A DNA stretch of 64,000 nt from contig JBAZNQ010000001.1 of NCBI GenBank assembly GCA_041649135.1, positions 445,438 through 509,437 on the forward strand, given 5' to 3'. A program made the translations under genes and the position numbers. This document shows, one piece after another, positions 4,727 through 31,966 of the stretch (position 1 is the stretch's first letter; each line of letters opens with the position of its first letter). The notes under the pieces are model-generated. The model did not search any database, was not told the origin of the DNA, and saw nothing but the letters and a program-made list of their open reading frames with translations. The DNA comes from Patescibacteria group bacterium. GTDB lineage: Bacteria; Patescibacteriota; Kazan-3B-28.

Positions 4727-5497
4727 CTAATCTAGGGCGCCAATTATTGCCTTGAAATACTTCACCAATACAATCAGACTAATCCCAACCAGAAACAGAA
4801 CAGTTTGGTAAATCGTCATACTCAACGATCTTTCTCTGATAAGGTCTGGCGTCAACTCGGCCAATGCAACGTACAGAAACACGCCGGCGGTAAAAGGTGC
4901 TGCCAACGTCAAAGACACCTTGAATAAAACTGGTAATAACAGTGACACACCCGCTCCAACAAACGACATAAATACCGCGAGTACATTAATCCGATTTGCC
5001 AATAGATTACCAACCCCCGCTCGACGCAAAATGACATAATTCGAAATCTCTTGCGGTATTTGATGGATAACTACTGCAATAGTCGTAGCAATCCCGATTT
5101 GTAAACCAGCCACATAACTACTGGCTATCACCAAACCGTCAACAAAGCTTTGGGTGGAAAAGCCGAACATATTACTAACCGCCGCATGATTACGTCGAGA
5201 CATCCGCACTTTGTACTTCAACTCTCGCCAAGTAATAGTCTGCTCTAGCAAAAACATCAATACGACCCCAGCTACAATGGATACCGTTACAGATGTAGTC
5301 CAGCCATCGTGCACAGCTTTCGGCAATAGATAAATCAGCGCATCTCCAATCAGCGCCCCCGCCGCCAACGCCATAAAACAACCTAAAATTCGATTAAGAT
5401 GCTCCCCCTTCTTTGGAACAACTTTAACAATAAAGTTGGCCAGGATTGCCAACAACCCAGTGCTAACCAGTGCGTAGATATAAACCCAAGAGGCCAT
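4727..5497 (-). CDS. zupT: ZIP-family divalent metal (zinc) transporter
   Basis: Multi-TM protein with an HQIPQEISNYVIL motif, resembling the ZIP signature HNxPEGxA. Confidence 0.7.
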   Translation of the reverse strand: MASWVYIYALVSTGLLAILANFIVKVVPKKGEHLNRILGCFMALAAGALIGDALIYLLPKAVHDGWTTSVTVSIVAGVVLMFLLEQTITWRELKYKVRMSRRNHAAVSNMFGFSTQSFVDGLVIASSYVAGLQIGIATTIAVVIHQIPQEISNYVILRRAGVGNLLANRINVLAVFMSFVGAGVSLLLPVLFKVSLTLAAPFTAGVFLYVALAELTPDLIRERSLSMTIYQTVLFLVGISLIVLVKYFKAIIGALD

Positions 5498-5559: not shown

Positions 5560-5640
5560 TGGAGACAAATGAGACAGTGGCAGGGCCTACTGTTTTGGGC
5601 TGGATTTTGGAGGAGTTTTGTAGCCTTGTGATGGGATAGG
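5560..5640. repeat. Type-2 repeat copy (GGAGACAAATGAGACAGTGGCAGGG…TTTTGG)
   Basis: Shares the GAGACAAATGAGACAGTGGCAGG core. Confidence 0.7.
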
Positions 5641-5775
5641 TTGGCAAACGGCTTTCATCAAAACGAGTAGTTTTGTAGCCTGTTCCAGGGCATCCTTCTT
5701 ACTGATTTTAACTCCAAACTCCTTCTCGTAGATTCGCTGGAATTCGGATATTTCTTTATCAGTTAATTGCATCAA
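5587..5775 (-). CDS. Small protein (62 aa), paralog of the 29413..29640 product
   Basis: Shared motif EFxRIYxKEFGVKISKKDALEQATKLLVLM versus EFARLYKNAYGIKLTHEQAESKAKALLNLVIAM. Confidence 0.4.
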   Translation of the reverse strand: MMQLTDKEISEFQRIYEKEFGVKISKKDALEQATKLLVLMKAVCQPIPSQGYKTPPKSSPKQ

Positions 5776-6065
5776 AAGAATCCCAAAGTAATACTTTTCT
5801 ATTATACCCCCGCCTCATAGGTGTTGGACTTAGTATACTTTGTGATACTTTATCATACTTTTATATACTTCCAGAGCGACTTTTTTTGACATTTATTATA
5901 TATGTGTTCTAAAATAATAGTAGAAAACCACAATTAGGTAATTAAGGAAACTAACGAGTTTCTTTTGCTGCACGGGAAACCCCGGACAAAAGCAGAAGCC
6001 AGTCAAGGCTGGCCAAAATGCATTGCCGGGTTTTTATACATATTAGTTAATTGAAGGAGGTCAGC

Positions 6066-14357: not shown

Positions 14358-16121
14358 TTATAGACGGTTTAACTCTTTGTATACCTCAAGAATCGGCTCA
14401 GGGATATCCTCGACTCGGATATTTTCCGAAGAATATTCACCTTTATATTCATTTTTACCCCAGCTAAAAATGTATAAAGCAACCGGCATATCTTTCTTCC
14501 CCAAACTTTTGACTAACTCCTCCAGCTTTGATTTATCTTCCTGAAAATAAATTGCAGACATCTGTTCATGTCCTCGAAATATCTGCCACCAATCGTTCCT
14601 CTCGATTTCATTAAGTGTATCTTCTCGCACCGCAATCATCTCTCCGGCTTGATAGGTAATGCGAATTTTTGCCTCATCCGGCACTTTGTGGATTTGTTCA
14701 ATATCCACGAGGTCAGTTTGGTAATACCAGAAGTTGCTCGGAATACCTAATACTTTATCGTCATTTTTATTCTTATATCCATTAATGACAGCATTGATAC
14801 GGGGGTAGCAAACTGATTCGGCAATGCCCCCATTGCCGTCATTATTATTTTCGTTATTAGTACAGAGTATAAATTTACGGTTACCACCATCCGCCTTATT
14901 CATCTCTAAAACAGCATGCCCAGTTGTCCCTGAGCCAGCAAAAAAGTCTAAAATATTTGCGTTTGGACGTGCACCTACAACAGCAAAAATACAGTCATAT
15001 ACAGTATAAAGTGACTTGGGGAAATCAAAATCACAATCTGGGATTATCTCACGCAGAAGCTTTGTTCCATACTCACCTGCATCATATTTCTTATCCGTCC
15101 AAACGGTTTTGTATGTTCCGTAATCTTTTGCAATCATTATCTGGATCATTCCGCCGTGCGATTCCTTAACCTGAAGGATATCTTTTATTCCCTCAACACT
15201 CTGTCTTGCATATCGCCACTTTCGTTCAACGCCCTTTTCGTCAATTGGCCAAACATAAACACTACCATCTTTTTTCTTTTCGTTTGCCGACTTCGGATGA
15301 ACATCGTCAGATACAACATTACCGAAGCCAATAATCTTTCCACTTTTTATGATCAATGGGTAGAAACAATTTCTTGCATCTGTACGCTTAGACTCATTGC
15401 CCCAATTACGCAAATTGGAAATATAGACCTCATCCTTAGCAAGAGAACGATCGCCGATGGTCTTTTTATTCTTCGGAACAACAAAAATTGCATATTCATG
15501 AGTATAGGAAAAGTTAGTGCCTTGGACACCCTTGGGATTATGAATAATGGTTACCGTATGTTGTTCGTGTGTTGGGAACAATTGCTCAATCAGCACTCCC
15601 AAATGTGCCTGCTCATTATCATCAATCGCACAAATCATTACACCATCATCTTTCAATAAATCTTTTGCCAAGCTGAGGCGATGGCGCATAAATGAGAGCC
15701 ACTTACTGTGTCTGTATTCGTCATCCCGATCCACATAATCATTGTTGTATTTCCAGTTTTTTGCGCCTGTGTTATACGGCGGATCAATGTAGATGAGATC
15801 AATATTCTTTTTGTGGGTGTAGTTGAGAACCGACAGTGCGAGATAGTTATCACCCTCAATCATCAAGTTATTCGGATACGCCTCGTCCAAATTAAGGCGG
15901 TTTTTAACAACTTCTTTCAGAACGGGGACTTTGATTTTTGATTGCTCAACAACATCTTCCATCTTGTCTTCAAAAACCAGCCCAAGATTGTTCTTCTTGA
16001 GTTTTTTGATTTGAGCTTGTAAATCCGCCACCTCTTTTTGTAAATCTTTTCCAGACATAATAATCACCCTTAAGCCATTCGACTCTAGCTCTATTATGGC
16101 TTCTTGCGAAGCTTTTTCCAA
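14358..16121 (-). CDS. mod: Type III R-M Mod subunit (N6-adenine DNA methyltransferase)
   Basis: DLIYIDPPYNTG (motif IV) and FFAGSGTTGHA (motif I). Confidence 0.85.
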   Translation of the reverse strand: MEKASQEAIIELESNGLRVIIMSGKDLQKEVADLQAQIKKLKKNNLGLVFEDKMEDVVEQSKIKVPVLKEVVKNRLNLDEAYPNNLMIEGDNYLALSVLNYTHKKNIDLIYIDPPYNTGAKNWKYNNDYVDRDDEYRHSKWLSFMRHRLSLAKDLLKDDGVMICAIDDNEQAHLGVLIEQLFPTHEQHTVTIIHNPKGVQGTNFSYTHEYAIFVVPKNKKTIGDRSLAKDEVYISNLRNWGNESKRTDARNCFYPLIIKSGKIIGFGNVVSDDVHPKSANEKKKDGSVYVWPIDEKGVERKWRYARQSVEGIKDILQVKESHGGMIQIMIAKDYGTYKTVWTDKKYDAGEYGTKLLREIIPDCDFDFPKSLYTVYDCIFAVVGARPNANILDFFAGSGTTGHAVLEMNKADGGNRKFILCTNNENNNDGNGGIAESVCYPRINAVINGYKNKNDDKVLGIPSNFWYYQTDLVDIEQIHKVPDEAKIRITYQAGEMIAVREDTLNEIERNDWWQIFRGHEQMSAIYFQEDKSKLEELVKSLGKKDMPVALYIFSWGKNEYKGEYSSENIRVEDIPEPILEVYKELNRL

Positions 16122-16200
16122 ATCTGATTTTGTCTGGACTTCGCCACCCCTTCGGGCATCCTTGTCCTTGATATAGCCCTATAGACAAATGGAGAAAAAT

Positions 16201-17556
16201 ATGGCGAAAAATGAAGCAATTCTGGGAGCTCCCGAGGGGTCTTCGGAGGCCCTTGAGCAACCACAAGGAGCCAAGTACTGTCTCTATGCCCGGAAGTCCT
16301 CAGAGCAGGATGAACGGCAGGCCCTTTCCATAGATAGCCAAATTAAGGAGATGTTGGCGATGGCCGAAAGGGACGGGATAGAGATCGTGGAGACTATCAA
16401 GGAAAGCCACTCAGCCAAGGACTCAGGCCAAAGACCTGCCTTTACCGAGCTTCTACTGAGAATCCGAGAAGGTGATTTCAATGGCATTCTGACATGGGCT
16501 CCAGACCGATTAAGCCGAAATGCCGGAGACCTCGGCTCCCTTGTCGACCTTATGGACCAAGGGCTTCTGCATGAAATCAGAACTCATGGTCAGATATTCA
16601 GAAACTCCCCTAACGAGAAGTTCCTCTTGATGATTCTCTGTAGCCAAGCCAAATTGGAAAATGACAACAAAGGCGTAAATGTTAAGCGAGGGATGCGAAC
16701 CAAATGTGAAATGGGCTGGCGACCGGGAGTCGCCCCCATAGGATATCTCAACAACTACGCAGATAACACTATTACGGTAGACCCGGAAAGAGCTCCCATC
16801 ATCAAAGAAATATTCAATAAGGTGGCCAAGCAGGGAGATTCAGGGCGCGACATTTTCAACTGGATCAACAATGAGACTTCCTTTATTACTAGAGGGGGCA
16901 AAAAAATGCCCTTGAGCACAATTTTTCTGATTCTCAAAAATAGCTTCTACTACGGAGAGTACACATACGGCGAGGGAACCTACCACGGCAAACATGAGCC
17001 ACTTATCACAAAAGAGCTATTTGATGAGGTGCAAGTCAGAATTTCCAAACCCGCCCATGGCCGTCATGGCGAGAAATGTTTCGCCTTCGCCAGAATGATG
17101 ACCTGTGGCCAATGCGGAGCCGGAATTACTGCCGAAGAAAAATTCAAGCGATTAAAGAATGGCGATATGATACGCCATATTTACTACCACTGTACCGACG
17201 GCAAAAGACTCGGCTGTAAACAACCCTATGTTAGGGAGGCAGATCTCATCGAACAATTTGTAGAAATAGTAGACAAGCTAACCTTAGACAGGATAGGGAT
17301 GAAGGATAGGTTACAAGAAGAAATAGACCGCTACAACAAGTTTACGCAAGGCGTGTTGGGGATGGACCCTTCCACTCAGAAGATGCCTCGAGTAGATCTA
17401 AAAATGTACGCCAAGTACATCCTGCGAGAAGGTCGCAACGAAGAAAAGAGAGAGGTGCTGAGCCACATCCAAAACAAAGTTGTACTGAATCAAGGGAAAC
17501 TAAAACTACAGGATAATAAGCAAGCCAACATGCCGGAAGTAACCCGCGTCAACTAA
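16201..17556 (+). CDS. Large serine recombinase (resolvase/invertase N-domain, recombinase domain, zinc ribbon)
   Basis: YARKSS catalytic serine motif, DRLSRN, and a CGQCG…YYHC zinc ribbon. GGAG RBS before ATG 16201. Paralog of 29847..31451. Confidence 0.85.
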   Translation: MAKNEAILGAPEGSSEALEQPQGAKYCLYARKSSEQDERQALSIDSQIKEMLAMAERDGIEIVETIKESHSAKDSGQRPAFTELLLRIREGDFNGILTWAPDRLSRNAGDLGSLVDLMDQGLLHEIRTHGQIFRNSPNEKFLLMILCSQAKLENDNKGVNVKRGMRTKCEMGWRPGVAPIGYLNNYADNTITVDPERAPIIKEIFNKVAKQGDSGRDIFNWINNETSFITRGGKKMPLSTIFLILKNSFYYGEYTYGEGTYHGKHEPLITKELFDEVQVRISKPAHGRHGEKCFAFARMMTCGQCGAGITAEEKFKRLKNGDMIRHIYYHCTDGKRLGCKQPYVREADLIEQFVEIVDKLTLDRIGMKDRLQEEIDRYNKFTQGVLGMDPSTQKMPRVDLKMYAKYILREGRNEEKREVLSHIQNKVVLNQGKLKLQDNKQANMPEVTRVN

Positions 17557-17777
17557 TTTATTAAGCCCTGGATGCAGGTCGCTCGACCTGCATAATCAGT
17601 TGATTGACCCAAGTTGGGATATGCCCTAAGACAATCTTCGTAACCCTTGGTGGCTCGACCTTCTTTTAGAATAGGATAATCCTCTACGGAGAGCTGATCA
17701 CTACAGCTGACTGATGCCACACCGATAAACACAATAACCAATACGAGAATGATTGTGAAAATTAAAACTTTTTTCAT
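17553..17777 (-). CDS. Small secreted/lipoprotein-like protein
   Basis: Signal peptide MKKVLIFTIILVLVIVFIGVASVSC. Confidence 0.4.
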   Translation of the reverse strand: MKKVLIFTIILVLVIVFIGVASVSCSDQLSVEDYPILKEGRATKGYEDCLRAYPNLGQSTDYAGRATCIQGLIN

Positions 17778-17789
17778 CTTAGTAAACCT

Positions 17790-18386
17790 TTATTTATAGA
17801 GCGAGTAATATTCTTTCCCTGCTTGCCAAAGATATTGATCAATCGTTTTTGGATCATATTGTGTCAGCCCGTAGAATGTTCTGAACTCGTCAATAATCTC
17901 TCGGAACTTGGGATAATCCTTTAAGTCCTGGTTGCTAAACTTAGCAAACTGATCAGTTCGCTTGAAATGGAGCAATAGTTTTTCCACATAGGAATCGTAG
18001 ATTGGATAAATCTTGGGTTGGTGACGACTACAATACTTGGTGGCAAATGAATAAAAACGGCGAGTCTTTCCGCCGTTCATCTTTACCGTAGCAATCTGAT
18101 TAACAATTCCGAGGTCTCCCCGCTTCAGTCCTTCATCTATCCCCAAGCTCTGGATATGCCGAGCCACGGTCAGCGGATCAAGGATGTTCGTGCTGTATAA
18201 AACATTGAGAGAGCACACCTTAATCAGAATGTCGTCTAGATTGTTATTGAGAGGATAGGTTGTTAAAAATAGCTTATTTAAACTACTCTCCTTTAACCCA
18301 TCTTCCTTTTGTGAACCCCACGGTTTGAGATAGCGTTCTACCTCTTGTAGGGTTGGGCGTGGTATCGTTAGTCCTTCTCGGCTCAT
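17790..18386 (-). CDS. Hypothetical protein
   Basis: 198-aa ORF. Confidence 0.45.
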   Translation of the reverse strand: MSREGLTIPRPTLQEVERYLKPWGSQKEDGLKESSLNKLFLTTYPLNNNLDDILIKVCSLNVLYSTNILDPLTVARHIQSLGIDEGLKRGDLGIVNQIATVKMNGGKTRRFYSFATKYCSRHQPKIYPIYDSYVEKLLLHFKRTDQFAKFSNQDLKDYPKFREIIDEFRTFYGLTQYDPKTIDQYLWQAGKEYYSLYK

Positions 18387-18434
18387 GGTTGACCCTCTTT
18401 CCGGTGAGTCGCCCTGGCCTCTAATTGATTAATC

Positions 18435-18590
18435 AAAAGAGGGCAGACCTCACACCTAGTCAACCCATGACTTCTACTCCGAAGAATAGTCATCACGGTA
18501 AGTAGAGCATCTGCCCACCTCTGACCGTGATGACGGAGAAAAAAGTACTACAATTCGGAGTTGTAAATATACGAAAAAGCCATGGGTTGA
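18435..18590. other. Structured inverted-repeat element (GGGCAGACCTCAC…GCAGAGCATCTGCCC; GTCATCACGG…CCGTGATGAC), homologous to 29069-29230
   Basis: Shared blocks AAAAGRGGGCAGACCTCAC, GCAGAGCATCTGCCC and TTGTARATATACRAA. One copy lies near each serine recombinase. Confidence 0.6.
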
Positions 18591-18606
18591 CGCTTCCAGC
18601 ATAGCA

Positions 18607-25424: not shown

Positions 25425-25500
25425 AAAGGACGCTTTGAGGCACCTCAGTCATTTGACTCGTTTTTATTTGGCTCCGTTGGCTAGAAGAAGTCAGGACTTG
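25425..25500. repeat. Type-1 repeat, variant tail (…TTTGGCTCCGTTGGCTAGAAGAAGTCAGGACT)
   Basis: Same head as other Type-1 copies. Shares its tail with 26640-26700. Confidence 0.8.
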
Positions 25501-26097: not shown

Positions 26098-26215
26098 ATT
26101 CTCTGGCTCCCCCTGCTGGATAAGTTTAGAAAAGTTGACTGGATAAAAGTCAGAAGAGAGTTAGATGATTTTGTATTAAAAAATGTCGGGGTTTCACCGA
26201 CTTCTATCGCCTGAG
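26098..26215. repeat. Type-3 repeat/gene-fragment (…LWLPLLDKFRKVDWIKVRRELDDF…*), homologous to 672-770. Begins with TGGCTCCCCCTGCTGGAT, which resembles the tRNA-Asn 3' end TGGCTCCCGCGGCTGGAT.
   Basis: Direct comparison: 15/18 identity with the tRNA-Asn 3' end at 31410-31427. Confidence 0.5.
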
Positions 26216-26639: not shown

Positions 26640-26700
26640 AGTCAAGCTTTTCTTGGTTTGGCTCCGTTGGCTAGAAGAAGTCAGGACTATGCCTGCCTAG
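26640..26700. repeat. Type-1 repeat tail fragment (TTTGGCTCCGTTGGCTAGAAGAAGTCAGGACT)
   Basis: Identical tail to 25470-25500. Confidence 0.7.
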
Positions 26701-27389: not shown

Positions 27390-27893
27390 TTACTGGGCGG
27401 TGTTGGTTTTGCACCACTCTTCACATTCAGCTTCCAGTCTACGCTTGCGGTGGTCATACTCTACGGTATAGGCAGTCAACAATACAAAATACCCCTTATT
27501 TCTAGGTGCCAAAACAACCACATAGCTCCAATCTGAAAGTGCAATGCAAACATGAAGCTTATCCTTACGTTTTACTTCCCAAACCTTCAGACTAGCCGAA
27601 TTTTCAATCATCGGCCTGACCCAACACACTCTCTCGCAACGTCGTAAATCTGGGATCCTTGTTGCCTCCGTCTTGCCTTCTGAAACTAAGTGCCAGAACG
27701 TAATACCCTTTCCATTAAGGGGTGGAGCAAAACGACTAACGACTGGCAGACCCCTAAAAAGAGGCTTACTTGCAACAAAATCCTTGCAGTAATGAGCGTA
27801 AATAGCATCAATGTATTTATCCCAATTACCGCTATGTTCTCCGAGCTCAACAATCGCAGGCAACCAATCAATTGTCGCAACACCATCAGCCAT
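27390..27893 (-). CDS. Hypothetical protein with a possible PD-(D/E)xK nuclease motif
   Basis: IPDLRR…(21 aa)…WEVKRK fits PD…(D/E)xK. The call is weak. Confidence 0.35.
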   Translation of the reverse strand: MADGVATIDWLPAIVELGEHSGNWDKYIDAIYAHYCKDFVASKPLFRGLPVVSRFAPPLNGKGITFWHLVSEGKTEATRIPDLRRCERVCWVRPMIENSASLKVWEVKRKDKLHVCIALSDWSYVVVLAPRNKGYFVLLTAYTVEYDHRKRRLEAECEEWCKTNTAQ

Positions 27894-28584
27894 TTCGTGC
27901 CTCCCACCGCAACAAATTCAGCTTGTCTTCTCGAACCAGAGTGGTGGCCTTCAGACTATAACCAGAACGTTGTTTTATTTTAGCTATGATATCAAGTTTT
28001 GCCTGACTCGCCTGCAAACCACGTGCTGTGTATGATACTGCGCCCAATAAAAAGTCAGCCAATTGAAGAATCTCACTTTCGTGAGAGCGCATATTTTGAA
28101 TCTTTGCTACCACTTTCCTAGAGATATCCCCCAAGCTAGTGGCAAGCACATCATGCAGCTTCTTCACCTTATCCGCACTACGACTATCTTTGATGTCTAA
28201 GTATATGTCGTATTTATTTTCAGGATGCAAAATGACCCATAGCATCTCGTAGTACATTTTGTAATACCAATCGTCATGGGTCTGATTGTGCGCCTCATGA
28301 TTCAACACTCCCTTATCAGGTATCACCAGCGCCCTAAAGTGAAGATCGGAATTGTCGAAAAAATAATTCACCAAATCAAGATAAAAGGCTTCTTTGGCTG
28401 GGGAAACCTTTGACCACTTGATTTCAAAGCTACCACTAAGGCCATGCTCTTTTTTAATTTCCCGAATTCTTTGCGAAATCGGACGAACTTTTTCTATGGG
28501 GCACCATATGGCGCCCAGCGACATAGCCAGTTGTTTGTCATTTTCCAAGTGACAACTTTCGTCACAGTAAACATTAAAATCCAT
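27886..28584 (-). CDS. DUF3800-family protein
   Basis: N-terminal FNVYCDESCH motif typical of DUF3800. Confidence 0.55.
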   Translation of the reverse strand: MDFNVYCDESCHLENDKQLAMSLGAIWCPIEKVRPISQRIREIKKEHGLSGSFEIKWSKVSPAKEAFYLDLVNYFFDNSDLHFRALVIPDKGVLNHEAHNQTHDDWYYKMYYEMLWVILHPENKYDIYLDIKDSRSADKVKKLHDVLATSLGDISRKVVAKIQNMRSHESEILQLADFLLGAVSYTARGLQASQAKLDIIAKIKQRSGYSLKATTLVREDKLNLLRWEARNG

Positions 28585-28680
28585 ACTTCCTCCTGATAGC
28601 TAAAAGTGGGTGAAAACAACACCCTACATCATTTTACACCCAAATTAGGTTGCAAATAGACCATCCCATCTATCTTCTCT

Positions 28681-28860
28681 ATCGTGTCGGAAAACTCTTG
28701 ATTTTCCGACTGCTTCGTGGCGCAGTATAAAAAATCAGCTATCTGCTCGTTCCAAAAAACTCTTTTTTATCGTGTCAGGAAACTCCTTTTGCCGTGTCGG
28801 AAAATTACCCAACATGCCCTCGTTCAGGCAAAAGCGACCTTTTACCGTGTCAATAAATCA
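28681..28860. promoter_or_regulatory. Iteron/operator cluster: four direct repeats of (A/G)(T/C)CGTGTC(G/A)GAAAA. The first is a perfect palindrome, GTCGGAAAA-n7-TTTTCCGAC.
   Basis: Copies at 28681, 28769, 28791 and 28844. Confidence 0.6.
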
Positions 28861-28872
28861 TCGTTTTCTACC

Positions 28873-29043
28873 GCCCACCGTACATATCAACCCAAAAGAC
28901 ATACCCAGCCACAATCACAAAAATCACTAACGTAAAAATTCCAGAGGCCACTTCCCCAGCATACAAATACAGCAACACACCACTAAACAAGAATAGGGCA
29001 ATGGACATAATGAGACACAGAGGATAAATCTTTGGATCCATGT
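28873..29043 (-). CDS. Possible small hydrophobic protein (57 aa), below the ORF-track cutoff
   Basis: Manual translation: MDPKIYPLCLIMSIALFLFSGVLLYLYAGEVASGIFTLVIFVIVAGYVFWVDMYGGR. Confidence 0.25.
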
Positions 29044-29068
29044 TGATTAGGAGATAACTTATATCACA

Positions 29069-29230
29069 AAAGGGCAGACCTCACGCTTGGTCTACCCGAA
29101 ACCTCTTGCCCTGTTAGGAGCTGAGCGTCGCGGACAAGCAGAGCATCTGCCCGTCTCTGCCCACGACACCTCTCTCAATAGAGGCCTAACAGGAATTGTA
29201 GATATACAAATTTTGGTTTCAGGTAGACGC
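29069..29230. other. Second copy of the structured inverted-repeat element (GGGCAGACCTCAC…GCAGAGCATCTGCCC; CTGTTAGG…CCTAACAG)
   Basis: Homologous to 18435-18590. Lies about 600 bp upstream of serine recombinase B. Confidence 0.6.
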
Positions 29231-29412
29231 CCACATTTTACCTTGTGCGGACTTTTTTATCCACATTTTTATTTTCGCCCCATAAGATAAAGATATATTC
29301 CAATCGTTGCTCTGGAAGCTGATTTCGCACTAGACAGCCTGTTGCGAATCGATACAATGAAACTAGTTTCGACAGTTCACTTGTTCATTTAGCAATACAA
29401 CCAGTTCGCGGC

Positions 29413-29640
29413 ATGGTTAGCTGTGTTTTCAAATACATGGTTACTTCAATATCCAGCAAACGAGTCGCGGAGTTCGCACGTCTGTACAAGAACGCTTACG
29501 GCATCAAACTGACGCACGAACAAGCAGAGAGCAAAGCAAAAGCATTGCTCAATCTTGTAATTGCCATGTCCCCCTCCCAACCCAACGGTATATTAGTTAA
29601 CCAAAATCATCGAAATGAAAGACAAGTTAGTCCGTGTTAG
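29413..29640 (+). CDS. Small protein, paralog of the 5587..5775 product
   Basis: Shared EFxRxYxxxxGxKxxxxxAxxxAxxLLxLxxAM motif. Confidence 0.4.
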   Translation: MVSCVFKYMVTSISSKRVAEFARLYKNAYGIKLTHEQAESKAKALLNLVIAMSPSQPNGILVNQNHRNERQVSPC

Positions 29641-29818
29641 TAGTGAGTCCCATAAGCTCCTCAACCTATACGCTGTAGCCCAAGGTGAAAGCCTGAAAAG
29701 CGCCATAGAGCATCTCATCAACTCTGCAATTGAAGCCGACTCAGAGCTTCAGCCACTTTTCATTCAGCTTGCCAACCACTCTGCAACAAAACCAGCAGAA
29801 CCTGCTGGACTTAAATAA
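29615..29818 (+). CDS. Small ribbon-helix-helix-like DNA-binding protein
   Basis: KLVRVSSESHKLLNLYAVAQGESLKSAIEHLI is RHH/Arc-like. Sits immediately upstream of the recombinase. Confidence 0.35.
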   Translation: MKDKLVRVSSESHKLLNLYAVAQGESLKSAIEHLINSAIEADSELQPLFIQLANHSATKPAEPAGLK

Positions 29819-29846
29819 AAACTTCGAGTATTGGTTTGTGTTGACT

Positions 29847-31451
29847 ATGAAATATATTCTCTACGCTAGAAAGTCCTCAGAAAGTGAAGACCGACAAGTA
29901 CTGTCGGTGGATTCGCAAATTCAAGAATTAAAGGCATTAGCCAAACGCAATGGTCAGCAAATAGTAGCTGTCCTTCAGGAATCGATGTCAGCCAAAGACC
30001 CAGAAAAGAGGCCAGTATTTGAAGAAATGGTAGATAGGATCAAGGGCGGAGAAGCTCAAGGTATTATCTGCTGGAAACTCGACCGATTAGCCCGCAATCC
30101 CGTTGATGGTGGAACAATCCAATGGATGCTCCAAAGAGGCGATGTCACGCACATTCAGACAGCTGATAGAAGTTATTACCCCAGCGACAATGTACTTCTG
30201 ATGAGTGTGGAGCTTGGTATGGCAAATCAGTTTATTCGAGACTTAAGTCAAAACACCAAAAGAGGTCTACGCGCAAAGGCAGCTCAAGGACACTATCCTG
30301 GCTATTCAACTATTGGATATATGCACGACCCTCTAGTCCCTAAGGGGAAAAAATATATCATCCCCGACCCAGAACGATTCTCGATTGTCCAACGAATGTT
30401 GCGACTAATAATTGATGGGGAAGCTAACCCACCTCAGGCACTAAAGGTCGCCACAGAAGAATGGGGTCTTAGAAGTAGGCTCGGCAACAAGTTGCCACAA
30501 AGTACTATCTATCGAATCATCAAAGATCCTTTTTACGCAGGATACTATGAATACCCTAAAGCCAGTGGTAATTGGTTTGATGGACTACATGAGGCAATGA
30601 TTACCAGAAGCGAGTACGACACACTCCAAGCAATTATGAAACGACCAAGTAGAACCCGTCCCAAAACCCTAATCTTTGCCTATACTGGCCTAATCTACTG
30701 TGGAGAATGTGGTGGTATGGTCACTGCCGAAATAAAAAGAAAGGTCTTAAAGAATGGGGAAATCAGAATCTACATCTACTATCACTGCACCAAGCGGAAA
30801 AATCCTAACTGCACTCAAAAGTGCATTACCGAAGAGGAGCTAGAATCTCAACTCGTAGCCATTCTTAAGCGAGTAGAACTCCCAGAGGATTTCAGCGAGT
30901 GGGTCATCAAGCAACTAGAGCTCATGAACCGCCAATCTGCCGAAAACCGCCAAGCCATATTGCGCGACCTGCAAGCTAACTACCAAAATTGCACCAAGCG
31001 TATCGACACCCTTATAGACATGCGTACTTCCGAAGCTATAACTTCAGAAGAGTTTGATACCAAGAAAGTTCAGCTACTAGCCGAAAAGGAACGAATCCAC
31101 GAGCTCCTGAATGACAAGGATCGCGATGTTAACCAGACCGTGGTTAGAACCGAGACAATCATAAGATTAGCCGAGCAAGCCACCCTTAAGCTCAAAACTG
31201 GTAGCATTCTCGAGAAGAAGCGTCTAGTATCCCAATTATGTTCGAACCTGACACTGCTAGACAATAAGCTCACCCTAGAAGTAGAAAAACCATTTTCTAT
31301 CGCAGAACGGCTGGCCACAGAAGTGCATGCCATTGCTGAAGGGTTAGAACCGCAAAAAGACCGCTCACAGAGCGACCTTATTGCCGAAAAACTAGTTGAT
31401 TCTGATAACTGGCTCCCGCGGCTGGATTCGAACCAGCGACCCATCGCTTAA
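29847..31451 (+). CDS. Large serine recombinase; the 3' end overlaps tRNA-Asn on the opposite strand
   Basis: YARKSS, DRLARN and a C-x2-C…YYHC zinc ribbon. Start taken at MKYILYARK. Confidence 0.85.
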   Translation: MKYILYARKSSESEDRQVLSVDSQIQELKALAKRNGQQIVAVLQESMSAKDPEKRPVFEEMVDRIKGGEAQGIICWKLDRLARNPVDGGTIQWMLQRGDVTHIQTADRSYYPSDNVLLMSVELGMANQFIRDLSQNTKRGLRAKAAQGHYPGYSTIGYMHDPLVPKGKKYIIPDPERFSIVQRMLRLIIDGEANPPQALKVATEEWGLRSRLGNKLPQSTIYRIIKDPFYAGYYEYPKASGNWFDGLHEAMITRSEYDTLQAIMKRPSRTRPKTLIFAYTGLIYCGECGGMVTAEIKRKVLKNGEIRIYIYYHCTKRKNPNCTQKCITEEELESQLVAILKRVELPEDFSEWVIKQLELMNRQSAENRQAILRDLQANYQNCTKRIDTLIDMRTSEAITSEEFDTKKVQLLAEKERIHELLNDKDRDVNQTVVRTETIIRLAEQATLKLKTGSILEKKRLVSQLCSNLTLLDNKLTLEVEKPFSIAERLATEVHAIAEGLEPQKDRSQSDLIAEKLVDSDNWLPRLDSNQRPIA

Positions 31452-31484
31452 CAGGCGATTGCTCTACCGCTGAGCTACACGGGA
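31410..31484 (-). tRNA. tRNA-Asn (GTT)
   Basis: Manual fold: acceptor UCCCGUG/CGCGGGA, anticodon loop CTGTTAA, T-loop TTCGAAT, encoded CCA. Confidence 0.75.
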
Positions 31485-31503: not shown

Positions 31504-31560
31504 AGTTAATATCCAATTTCCAATATCCAATTCTCAAGTGTCCAATATCCAATGCCCAAT
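31504..31560. repeat. CCAAT heptad tandem array (CCAATNN x ~7)
   Basis: 7-bp periodic. An inverted partner lies at 31941-31966. Confidence 0.7.
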
Positions 31561-31562
31561 AA

Positions 31563-31940
31563 TCAAGAAGCAGAGACTTTAGCTATCATTTTGTTTTTGA
31601 TGGTCGCCAGTATTTTAACTATTTCTTGCCCTTCCGTAAACACCCCATCAAGAGCCAATAAGTCAACCGATTTTCGAACCTTTAGTATTCTCAACCAGTA
31701 CAGTGTCTCCTTAGCCTCTTTTAGAGCAATTGAGAGTTTATGTATAAAGTCTTTGTCCGACTGCGCTTCGCTTGCCTCCATCATATTGGCAGCGATTGAG
31801 GTAGCTGACCGTACCAACTGGCCAACGAGAGGACGAGATCTAAAATCTAGCACTACACCGTCAGTCAGTTGCAAAACTCGGTCAGCCAATGCTTCACAGC
31901 GATCATAAATATCAATTTTGTTTCCAGCTCGTTCCCCCAT
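31563..31940 (-). CDS. Four-helix-bundle protein (23S rRNA intervening-sequence protein family)
   Basis: IANMMEASEAQSDKDFIHKLSIALKEAKETLYWLRI signature. Confidence 0.7.
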   Translation of the reverse strand: MGERAGNKIDIYDRCEALADRVLQLTDGVVLDFRSRPLVGQLVRSATSIAANMMEASEAQSDKDFIHKLSIALKEAKETLYWLRILKVRKSVDLLALDGVFTEGQEIVKILATIKNKMIAKVSAS

Positions 31941-31966
31941 TGAATATTGGAGATTGGATATTAAGT
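31941..31966. repeat. Inverted CCAAT heptad array (ATTGGAGATTGGATATT)
   Basis: Reverse complement of the 31504-31560 array. Confidence 0.65.

Follow-up and report, generated by a model that had tools for sequence, protein, structure and literature searches.

A four-unit repeat array with a perfect palindrome lies upstream of a DUF3800 gene

We analyzed a 64-kb stretch of a Patescibacteria metagenome-assembled genome (MAG; 521-kb contig JBAZNQ010000001.1), called the window below; all positions are those of the whole window. It holds a mobile element of ~5 kb, integrated at a tRNA-Asn gene by a large serine recombinase, and in this element a DUF3800 gene, the first of an operon on the minus strand, is preceded by a small array of repeats. 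The word CGTGTC occurs there four times on the plus strand inside 170 bp, at 28683, 28771, 28793, and 28846. An earlier note on this DNA had described four iteron-like repeats that could serve either a dimeric regulator or a replication origin. In kind, the array is most likely an ordinary protein-binding repeat array of a mobile element. Its units, and the palindrome that they include, are as follows.

28673..28697, plus strand: repeat unit 1, TCTTCTCTATCGTGTCGGAAAACTC; core copy 1 at 28683-28694, CGTGTCGGAAAA, the exact 12-mer
28761..28785, plus strand: repeat unit 2, TCTTTTTTATCGTGTCAGGAAACTC, 84% identical to unit 1 over 25 nt; core copy 2 at 28771-28782, CGTGTCAGGAAA, 10/12 matching
28785..28805, plus strand: repeat unit 3, CCTTTTGCCGTGTCGGAAAAT, 22 bp past unit 2, with the best internal dyad, TTTTGCCG-TGT-CGGAAAA; core copy 3 at 28793-28804, CGTGTCGGAAAA, the exact 12-mer
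28838..28858, plus strand: repeat unit 4, CCTTTTACCGTGTCAATAAAT, 53 bp past unit 3; the stop codon of a 57-aa open reading frame (ORF) is 10 nt away; core copy 4 at 28846-28857, CGTGTCAATAAA, 9/12 matching
28686..28710: perfect palindrome, GTCGGAAAA (28686-28694)-CTCTTGA-TTTTCCGAC (28702-28710), beginning within copy 1

The claim of four repeats holds for the CGTGTC word, but just two of the copies are exact 12-mers and the other two are degenerate. The perfect palindrome reported at the first copy is present, with 9-bp arms around a 7-bp spacer, and its right arm is an inverted half-copy of the repeat. All four units keep the CGTGTC core unchanged but vary in the flanks, with T-tracts to the left of it and A-tracts to the right in every one. 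An internal dyad, TTTTnCCG-TGT-CGGAAAA, makes each unit itself quasi-palindromic over 20 to 25 bp. Units 3 and 4 share 81% identity over 21 nt. The start-to-start spacing of the units is 88, 22, and 53 bp, so that units 2, 3, and 4 lie ~2 and ~5 helical turns apart. Tandem Repeats Finder called no tandem array at the cluster, leaving the idea of a 22- to 27-bp tandem unsupported. Two further candidate units, degenerate ones at ~28747 and ~28819, were rejected: they reached only rank 10 with a position weight matrix and were missed by a profile of the four units.

The array sits in a 283-bp gap (28585-28867, minus strand) that runs from the start codon of the DUF3800 gene to the stop codon of the 57-aa ORF. 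It covers the region 99 to 273 bp upstream of the DUF3800 ATG, and unit 1 is the nearest, at 99 to 126 bp. The earlier note had placed it correctly between the DUF3800 gene and the recombinase module, beyond the DUF3800 start at 28584, and had overlooked the 57-aa ORF and a structured RNA candidate that lie between the array and that module. The exact 12-mer CGTGTCGGAAAA is absent from the rest of the 64 kb, and this confinement of the word to one intergenic gap is more suggestive of a local function than of a regulon.

The clustering of the word is confirmed as real and non-random. CGTGTC totals 7 copies on the plus strand and 2 on the minus strand of the window. Among hexamers with no more than 10 copies in the window, a cluster of at least four same-strand copies within 170 bp arose in 0 of 200 dinucleotide-preserving shuffles, and the CGTGTC cluster is the sole one of this type in the real window. 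With the rarity filter removed, ~1 hexamer cluster is expected per shuffle, and perfect 9+9 inverted repeats are common as well (~2 per shuffle; 25 overlapping matches in the window). The significance of the array therefore comes from the rarity of the word, the extension of the matches to 12 to 25 nt, and the use of the same word in the inverted copy.

The array precedes a candidate defense operon

Two divergent series of genes and signals occupy this part of the element, with the following features.

27390..27893, minus strand: 167-aa partner gene, PDC-M04B, overlapping the DUF3800 stop
27886..28584, minus strand: DUF3800 gene, PADLOC PDC-M04A; strong ribosome-binding site (AGGAGG); first gene downstream of the array
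28868..29041, minus strand: 57-aa hydrophobic ORF without a ribosome-binding site, between the array and the structured RNA
29060..29232, minus strand: structured RNA candidate, copy B, with a terminator-like 3' hairpin; transcribed towards the array
29263-29235, minus strand: leftward promoter-like site, upstream of structured RNA copy B
29331-29358, plus strand: candidate rightward promoter, TAGACA-16-TACAAT, followed by the palindrome GAAACTAGTTTC (29359-29370)
29413..29640, plus strand: p75, a conserved small core gene of the element family
29615..29818, plus strand: 67-aa ribbon-helix-helix (RHH)-like orphan ORF, overlapping the p75 end; sole candidate DNA-binding protein of the element
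29850..31451, plus strand: large serine recombinase with Resolvase, Recombinase, and Zn_ribbon_recom domains; its 3' end overlaps the element-supplied 3' part of tRNA-Asn
31410..31484, minus strand: tRNA-Asn(GTT), the integration target, attR side

On the minus strand, the promoter-like site is followed by the structured RNA, the 57-aa ORF, the array, the DUF3800 gene, the 167-aa gene, and finally genes for two unknown proteins of 176 and 118 aa. On the plus strand, the promoter-like site at 29331-29358 leads into p75, the RHH-like ORF, and the recombinase gene. The two promoter-like sites stand back to back, and the region 29323-29375 together with the leftward site looks like a divergent switch region of the element. 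It is uncertain that the 57-aa ORF is a real gene; it had no match in four hidden Markov model (HMM) libraries, and protein databases were not searched with it.

The DUF3800 and 167-aa genes are adjacent and overlapping, and PADLOC matched them to PDC-M04A (E=9.5e-95) and PDC-M04B (E=3.8e-55). The pair would accordingly be an instance of PDC-M04, which is itself a candidate defense system. In the literature, DUF3800 proteins have an RNase-H-like fold and are tied to mobile elements and defense loci, and diverse structured RNAs accompany their genes (PMC5737381). An AlphaFold2 model of PDC-M04B was confident (pLDDT 84). Foldseek against the PDB returned nothing below E=0.1 for this model, the best matches being weak ones to RelE/HigB/colicin-D-type RNases (toxins), and a PDB sequence search with the protein was empty. 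The residues invariant in 14 homologues of PDC-M04B include W67, H68, the run P81-C86, and R88.

A multi-site operator is the tentatively favored function

We tentatively favor a reading in which the array is a multi-site operator of the DUF3800/PDC-M04 cargo operon, bound by a regulator that the element itself encodes. A sequence-specific and probably dimeric protein would bind the four units, several dimers acting cooperatively and coating ~180 bp. This coating could block transcription coming from the upstream leftward promoter and the structured RNA, or it could control a local, non-canonical promoter. The target would be the DUF3800/PDC-M04B genes and the two genes after them, all read leftward, and the expression of this cargo would in this way be tied to the element's state. 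The candidate binder is the 67-aa RHH-like ORF of the divergent p75-RHH-recombinase operon. RHH proteins (the Arc/MetJ/CopG/omega family) typically bind tandem or inverted repeats cooperatively.

Several features argue for an operator. Conservation is concentrated in the core, with patterned flanks, unlike what is seen in evenly decaying duplications, and the perfect palindrome is made from the repeat word itself. The array shows the dyad symmetry and tandem words of a dimeric-repressor operator, in its 9-7-9 palindrome and its TTTTnCCG-TGT-CGGAAAA units. The operon directly downstream of it is well defined and has a strong ribosome-binding site. The same array design recurs near promoters in relatives of the element and at a p75 paralogue elsewhere in the window, both described below. 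We also counted the absence of a Rep gene in favor of an operator.

The well-established multi-site operators of RHH proteins on plasmids and phages (omega of pSM19035, CopG of pMV158, ParG/ParR, Arc, and MetJ) resemble the array in several respects. They combine direct and inverted copies of a short word within 100 to 200 bp; so does the array, which lies between genes of a mobile element coding for a small RHH-like protein and whose symmetry suggests dimers. In the known operators, however, the units are contiguous or regular and overlap a defined promoter, whereas those of the array are irregularly spaced with no recognizable promoter. Unlike the known RHH repressors, the putative binder is an orphan with sub-threshold family matches.

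A number of observations weigh against the operator reading. A consensus scan of 28585-28870 found no sigma-70-like promoter in or near the array on either strand, although Patescibacteria promoters are poorly known; the best -10-like box before the DUF3800 gene, TAAAAT (28636-28631), has a -35-like TTGCAA just 13 bp off. The RHH-like ORF matched the Pfam family Omega_Repress below threshold (17.9 bits against a cutoff of 33.3) and ParD in the PDB at E=1.2. It is an orphan, with no homologue in 5.8 billion clustered proteins or in an HMMER search of 1.84 billion representatives. Its sequence can be read as a plausible strand-helix-GxS-helix pattern; a single-sequence AlphaFold2 model was all-helical, with no strand (pLDDT 72), and this monomer model is uninformative. 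Its gene lies 760 to 930 bp from the array in the divergent operon, and the candidate promoter of that gene bears a different palindrome, GAAACTAGTTTC. The 88-bp spacing of units 1 and 2 is out of helical phase. Finally, no diverged relative permits a conservation test, since all available copies are near-identical or too distant.

The earlier note had named the adjacent RHH protein as a possible binder. It is still the sole candidate in the element, but the sub-threshold matches, the orphan status, the distance of ~0.8 kb, and the lack of a sigma-70 promoter make the proposal weaker. Describing the array more broadly as an iteron- or operator-like cluster of binding sites is reasonable in view of the invariant core, the patterned flanks, the dyad, and the inverted half-site, whereas both specific readings came out of the analysis weaker than this description.

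Two observations concern promoters nearby. Unit 4 reads TTGACA on the minus strand, yet no unit has a -10 box at 16 to 18 bp, and we rejected the units as -35 boxes. The flanks of the rightward promoter, TTTCGCAC (29323) and TTTCGACAG (29367), loosely resemble the minus-strand form of the repeat, TTTCCGACAC. A relaxed pattern fitting both flanks had 4 of its 8 window sites in 28684-29375, having been designed after the sites were seen, and in a fuzzy 12-mer search the promoter site was among 26 chance-level matches. We take this post hoc resemblance as a lead only.

Gene regulation in Patescibacteria is almost unstudied. If the array is an operator, it would be among the first candidate cis-regulatory sites for a mobile element or a candidate defense operon of this group, and it offers a concrete DNA fragment together with a concrete candidate protein.

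Related elements carry p75, often a Rep-like gene, and arrays of their own

We defined the element family by clustering all ORFs of 80 loci that hold relatives of the recombinase. Homologues of p75 were found in 67 of 81 loci, upstream of the recombinase gene and nearly all on its strand, and share a core motif of ~45 residues (LPKEAIEEFKKLYKERFGVELSDEEA..RANNLVNLY.AVY). The p75 family had no match in Pfam or in phage and plasmid records; in one locus (L037), p75 is fused to an XRE-type helix-turn-helix (HTH) protein. A single-nucleotide polymorphism (SNP) in contig L002 destroys the annotated ATG of p75 at 29413, so the start is probably the ATG at 29437. The protein could be a recombination directionality factor or part of a replication module.

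In the relatives, the slot between p75 and the recombinase gene is usually filled by replication-type genes. An HTH_36/DnaD_N-like family occupies it in 8 loci and a weakly Phage_CRI/Rep_trans-like family likewise in 8 loci; other ORFs found there are winged-HTH-like, SpoVG, or DUF5659. In the window, this slot holds nothing but the 67-aa RHH-like ORF.

Arrays of repeats are present in many of the relatives as well. Unrelated in sequence to the one studied here, they are composed of several direct copies and one inverted copy of a 9- to 13-bp word. The word AACAGTATCAAAA is repeated within the HTH_36/DnaD-like gene of loci L023 and L056; the L023 copies, of which those at the ends are palindromic, begin at 5418, 5456, 5479, and 5502. 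The corresponding gene of L011, L046, and L008 has repeats of A(T/A)AAACTTCA, spaced by 22 bp in L011. These five loci have 2 to 4 direct repeats, most with an inverted copy too. The measured spacing (L023 and L011) is 22 to 23 bp, and because it is not a multiple of three within a gene, it points to a function at the DNA level. The repeats in these five genes are probably iteron origins embedded in the initiator gene. Repeats inside the initiator gene are the classic iteron arrangement of phage and plasmid initiators.

Other loci carry arrays directly upstream of p75, for example L044 with four copies of GGGTAAAA. By a crude count, 28 of 60 loci have clusters in the p75-recombinase module, at a density of 0.28 per kb compared with 0.19 per kb in the flanks (1.4x, p=0.05), a marginal enrichment. 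The window itself has a p75 paralogue at 5771..5590 (minus strand), preceded by four copies of AAAGTAT at a 10-bp period and then by a TATAAT box, with the palindrome AAAGTATTACTTT around TATAAT in its upstream region (window 5590-5880, minus strand). Several direct copies and one palindrome are the same design as in the array. The paralogue adjoins phage-like genes (a ParB-methylase and small and large terminase-like genes, 6.7 to 10 kb) and a tRNA cluster at 10 kb. Together, these loci outline a family of tRNA-integrating serine-recombinase elements in Patescibacteria that carry p75, usually a Rep-like gene, and element-specific arrays.

An origin of replication is unlikely

The habits of this family bear directly on the second function suggested in the earlier note, that the repeats are origin iterons by which the element could replicate. 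We consider it unlikely that the array is an iteron-type origin, either one that lacks its initiator gene or one dependent on a helper Rep in trans, as a relic or satellite origin; an excised circle would then replicate only with a cognate initiator elsewhere in the cell. The element family normally has a Rep-like gene between p75 and the recombinase gene, and the geometry of the repeats in the relatives' HTH_36/DnaD-like genes, 22 to 23 bp direct spacing plus an inverted copy, recurs in the array, where units 2 and 3 are 22 bp apart and unit 1 has the inverted copy. The two sets of motifs even have the loose form GTnTC...AAAA in common.

Nevertheless, no Rep-like gene or pseudogene was found in the element by tblastn and HMMs against its six-frame translation, nor in the 64-kb window with HMMs of the relatives' Rep-like genes against six-frame translations. 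The search for a Rep-like gene proposed earlier had a divided outcome: such genes are common in the relatives and absent here. We specifically rejected a Rep pseudogene under or near the array, finding none. The array is also outside the canonical slot; its spacing of 88, 22, and 53 bp is irregular, and two of only four units are degenerate. It adjoins no AT-rich unwinding element (GC of 0.38 to 0.52, the window mean being ~0.45). The sole DnaA-box-like 9-mer, TTATCCACA (29257-29265), is 400 bp away, with ~0.5 matches expected by chance. This perfect box overlaps the -35 of the leftward promoter-like site.

Scans of all ORFs of the element against Pfam, PHROGs, and NCBIfam gave no replication family except for the label of PHROG 16230 on PDC-M04B. 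We rejected PDC-M04B as a replication protein, as its predicted fold has no initiator-like domain and its weak matches are RNase-like.

With no initiator gene and no unwinding element, the origin reading lacks its two main supports, and what remains is family habit and geometry. Iteron origins, such as those of theta plasmids, of phage replisome-organizer genes (lambda O/ori, for example), and of the relatives' genes in L023, L056, L011, and L046, share with the array direct repeats ~22 bp apart and an inverted copy, and the element belongs to a family that usually carries a Rep-like gene. They differ in having an initiator, where the array has none in cis or within 64 kb, in their AT-rich region, and in their regular spacing; they also lie inside or after the rep gene, whereas the array is upstream of cargo.

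It is very improbable that the array is a working origin without its own initiator, whether a helper-dependent satellite origin or part of an unrecognized replication module in which the DUF3800 protein and the structured RNA would give RNA-primed initiation. If it were, a helper-dependent origin would let a Rep-less Patescibacteria island replicate after excision with the Rep of another element, and the RNA-primed version would explain why structured RNAs are frequent beside DUF3800 genes of mobile elements.

The array is unchanged in close copies and absent from distant relatives

By exact-sequence lookup, four contigs of other assemblies carry the DUF3800 protein. Three of them, from three samples, were compared over 28501-29900 (1,400 bp) and were 100% or 99.93% identical; the single SNP falls outside the array, which is unchanged. 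This near-identity is weak evidence because of recent common ancestry. Beyond these copies, the best homologues of the DUF3800 protein have 65% identity and are spread over many phyla, and the best relatives of the recombinase have 51% protein identity and come mostly from Patescibacteria MAGs. We searched 160 related loci, 80 around recombinase relatives and 80 around DUF3800 relatives, and the motif cluster was in none of them. The earlier note would have taken a lack of conservation in related elements as evidence against a function; the repeats are indeed absent from all 160, yet this says little about function because all of these relatives are too diverged (at most 51% for the recombinase and 65% for DUF3800). 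The array was not found by blastn against phages and plasmids, and an exact-pattern scan of viral contigs gave one chance match, within a coding region.

We also considered repeats of any sequence. A cluster of at least three copies was present within 500 bp upstream in just 8 of the 64 DUF3800-homologue loci with enough upstream sequence, and we rejected the array as a general feature of DUF3800 cassettes.

These data bear on the possibility that the repeats are a non-functional by-product, whether left over from local duplications or from an earlier regulatory or origin region that came along with the cargo, to which we assign a low probability. It would fit with the motif being in 0 of 160 loci, with the degeneracy of two of the four copies, and with the fact that neither a promoter nor a partner protein is demonstrable. 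The island moreover shows signs of accretion and decay, in three pseudo-att sequences that resemble a tRNA 3' end and in a perfect 32-nt direct repeat. The mismatches are uneven, however, with the six-base core invariant in 4 of 4 units and the flanks varying, and a perfect 9-bp inverted copy is unlikely to persist without selection. The region 28501-29900, identical or with one outside SNP in three contigs, also speaks against a by-product, if weakly.

The signs of accretion touch on the limits of the element. Its proposed extent, 26.1 to 31.5 kb, is plausible because the recombinase gene runs into the 3' part of tRNA-Asn and the tRNA 3' end recurs in degenerate form at ~26105. A perfect 32-nt direct repeat, TTTGGCTCCGTTGGCTAGAAGAAGTCAGGACT, at 25467-25498 and 26657-26688 brackets NUDIX and 118-aa genes, and this repeat and the sequence at 26105-26125 both resemble the tRNA-Asn 3' end. 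This arrangement suggests successive integrations (tandem accretion) at tRNA-Asn, in which case the left boundary of the element could be either 26105 or 26689. Among the Logan contigs of SRR8542065, the one on the host side stops at 31449 and the one of the element at 31478, giving an overlap of 30 nt, which is k-1; the break falls immediately 3' of the tRNA-Asn anticodon (31450-31452). Segment 25469-26686 forms a separate contig there, bounded by the 32-nt repeat (loci L003, L167, and L169). These breaks are compatible with presence/absence heterogeneity of the element in the population or with k-mers shared with other genomes; they suggest, without being proof, population heterogeneity at the integration site.

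A two-copy structured RNA candidate lies upstream of the array

Self-BLAST of the window revealed two paralogous copies of a structured RNA candidate of ~170 nt, copy B at 29060-29232 and copy A at 18430-18595, both on the minus strand. Both fold into the same multi-helix architecture (z = -4.6 and -5.8) and conserve the core GGGCAGATGCTCT. Pairing in the long closing helix survives several double changes, with 7 compensatory pairs in an automatic alignment. Each copy ends in a terminator-like hairpin and a T-run, and the 5' half of the hairpin overlaps the closing helix, making the RNA a candidate for riboswitch- or attenuator-like alternative pairing according to the predicted folds. The RNA had no Rfam match, and a covariance model found no further copy in 0.93 Mb of related loci (80 loci) or in viral contigs. 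A 198-aa ORF follows copy A at a distance of 44 nt, and copy B is upstream of the 57-aa ORF, the array, and the DUF3800 gene. This two-copy RNA is more novel than the repeat array, and the wider context, meaning the p75 element family and the Rfam-absent structured RNA, is more useful than the array alone.

Its presence raises the question of whether the repeats act as RNA. They would then be part of the DUF3800 operon's transcript, in a long 5' leader or intercistronic stretch that starts from the promoter-like site at 29263-29235 and passes through the structured RNA, and the palindrome and units would form hairpins affecting stability, processing, or read-through. We regard this as improbable. 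All leftward genes are on the minus strand, with the promoter-like site, the structured RNA, and its terminator-like hairpin upstream on that strand, and structured RNAs are known beside DUF3800 genes (PMC5737381). A 271-nt region folds better on the minus strand than its shuffles do (z = -2.8), and one G-U pair of the minus-strand hairpin GGUAAAAG/CUUUUGCC corresponds to a C-A mismatch on the plus strand. The plus strand, however, folds equally well (z = -3.2), as DNA dyads predict, and the unit hairpins are weak, with three G-C pairs plus A-U pairs and a 3-nt loop. Nothing matched Rfam, covariation is untestable with all available copies identical, and repeat clusters precede DUF3800 homologues in just the 8 of 64 loci mentioned above.

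In the Rfam searches, a cmscan at E<=10 on 28400-29700 gave only spurious matches, no match reached the gathering score in the whole window, and none did so in 17 loci of the closest DUF3800 homologues. The DUF3800-I to -XI RNA motifs (Weinberg et al. 2017, PMC5737381) are, like the array region, non-coding features beside a DUF3800 gene. The array differs from them in matching no covariance model and in being a repeat at the DNA level, not a conserved fold. The separate RNA at 29060-29232 might be an unlisted analogue of these motifs, although its second copy is not beside a DUF3800 gene. We rejected base pairing between the structured RNA and the repeats (only 6 nt match in copy B and none in copy A) and an intrinsic terminator at the palindrome, which a terminator scan did not list and which has no T-run after it on either strand.

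RNA copy A has a neighborhood of its own. A second large serine recombinase gene (16189..17556, plus strand) adjoins a type III-like DNA methyltransferase gene (14358..16121, minus strand), and the 198-aa ORF (17790..18386, minus strand), weakly similar to DUF6308, lies beside this recombinase gene. From its genes, 14358-18386 appears to be another mobile or defense-type region, one that carries copy A.

Other identities and neighboring features

A serine-recombinase crossover or res site was rejected: the odd 7-bp spacer of the palindrome does not fit a central 2-bp crossover, and the array has no similarity to the att junctions at 31410-31451 or 26105-26125. Inverted repeats near a serine recombinase gene are a trait that the array has in common with res sites, but its recombinase is a large serine integrase without the resolvase-type C-terminal HTH, unlike those of res systems. 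The half-site word TGTCGGAAAA bears a superficial likeness to resolvase half-sites of TGTCYNNTA form and is a lead only. The probability left over from the readings above goes to other roles, for example, a centromere-like site or a platform for a host factor.

Beyond the tRNA-Asn gene, a 23S-rRNA-IVP-family gene (31563..31940, minus strand) is flanked by 26-nt inverted repeats that are 92% complementary (31506-31566 and 31939-31964). These repeats are built of AATATCCAA-type words, which also occur in tandem at 31508-31566. Judging by this layout, the gene and its repeats look like a small cassette between tRNA-Asn and a sigma-70 gene.

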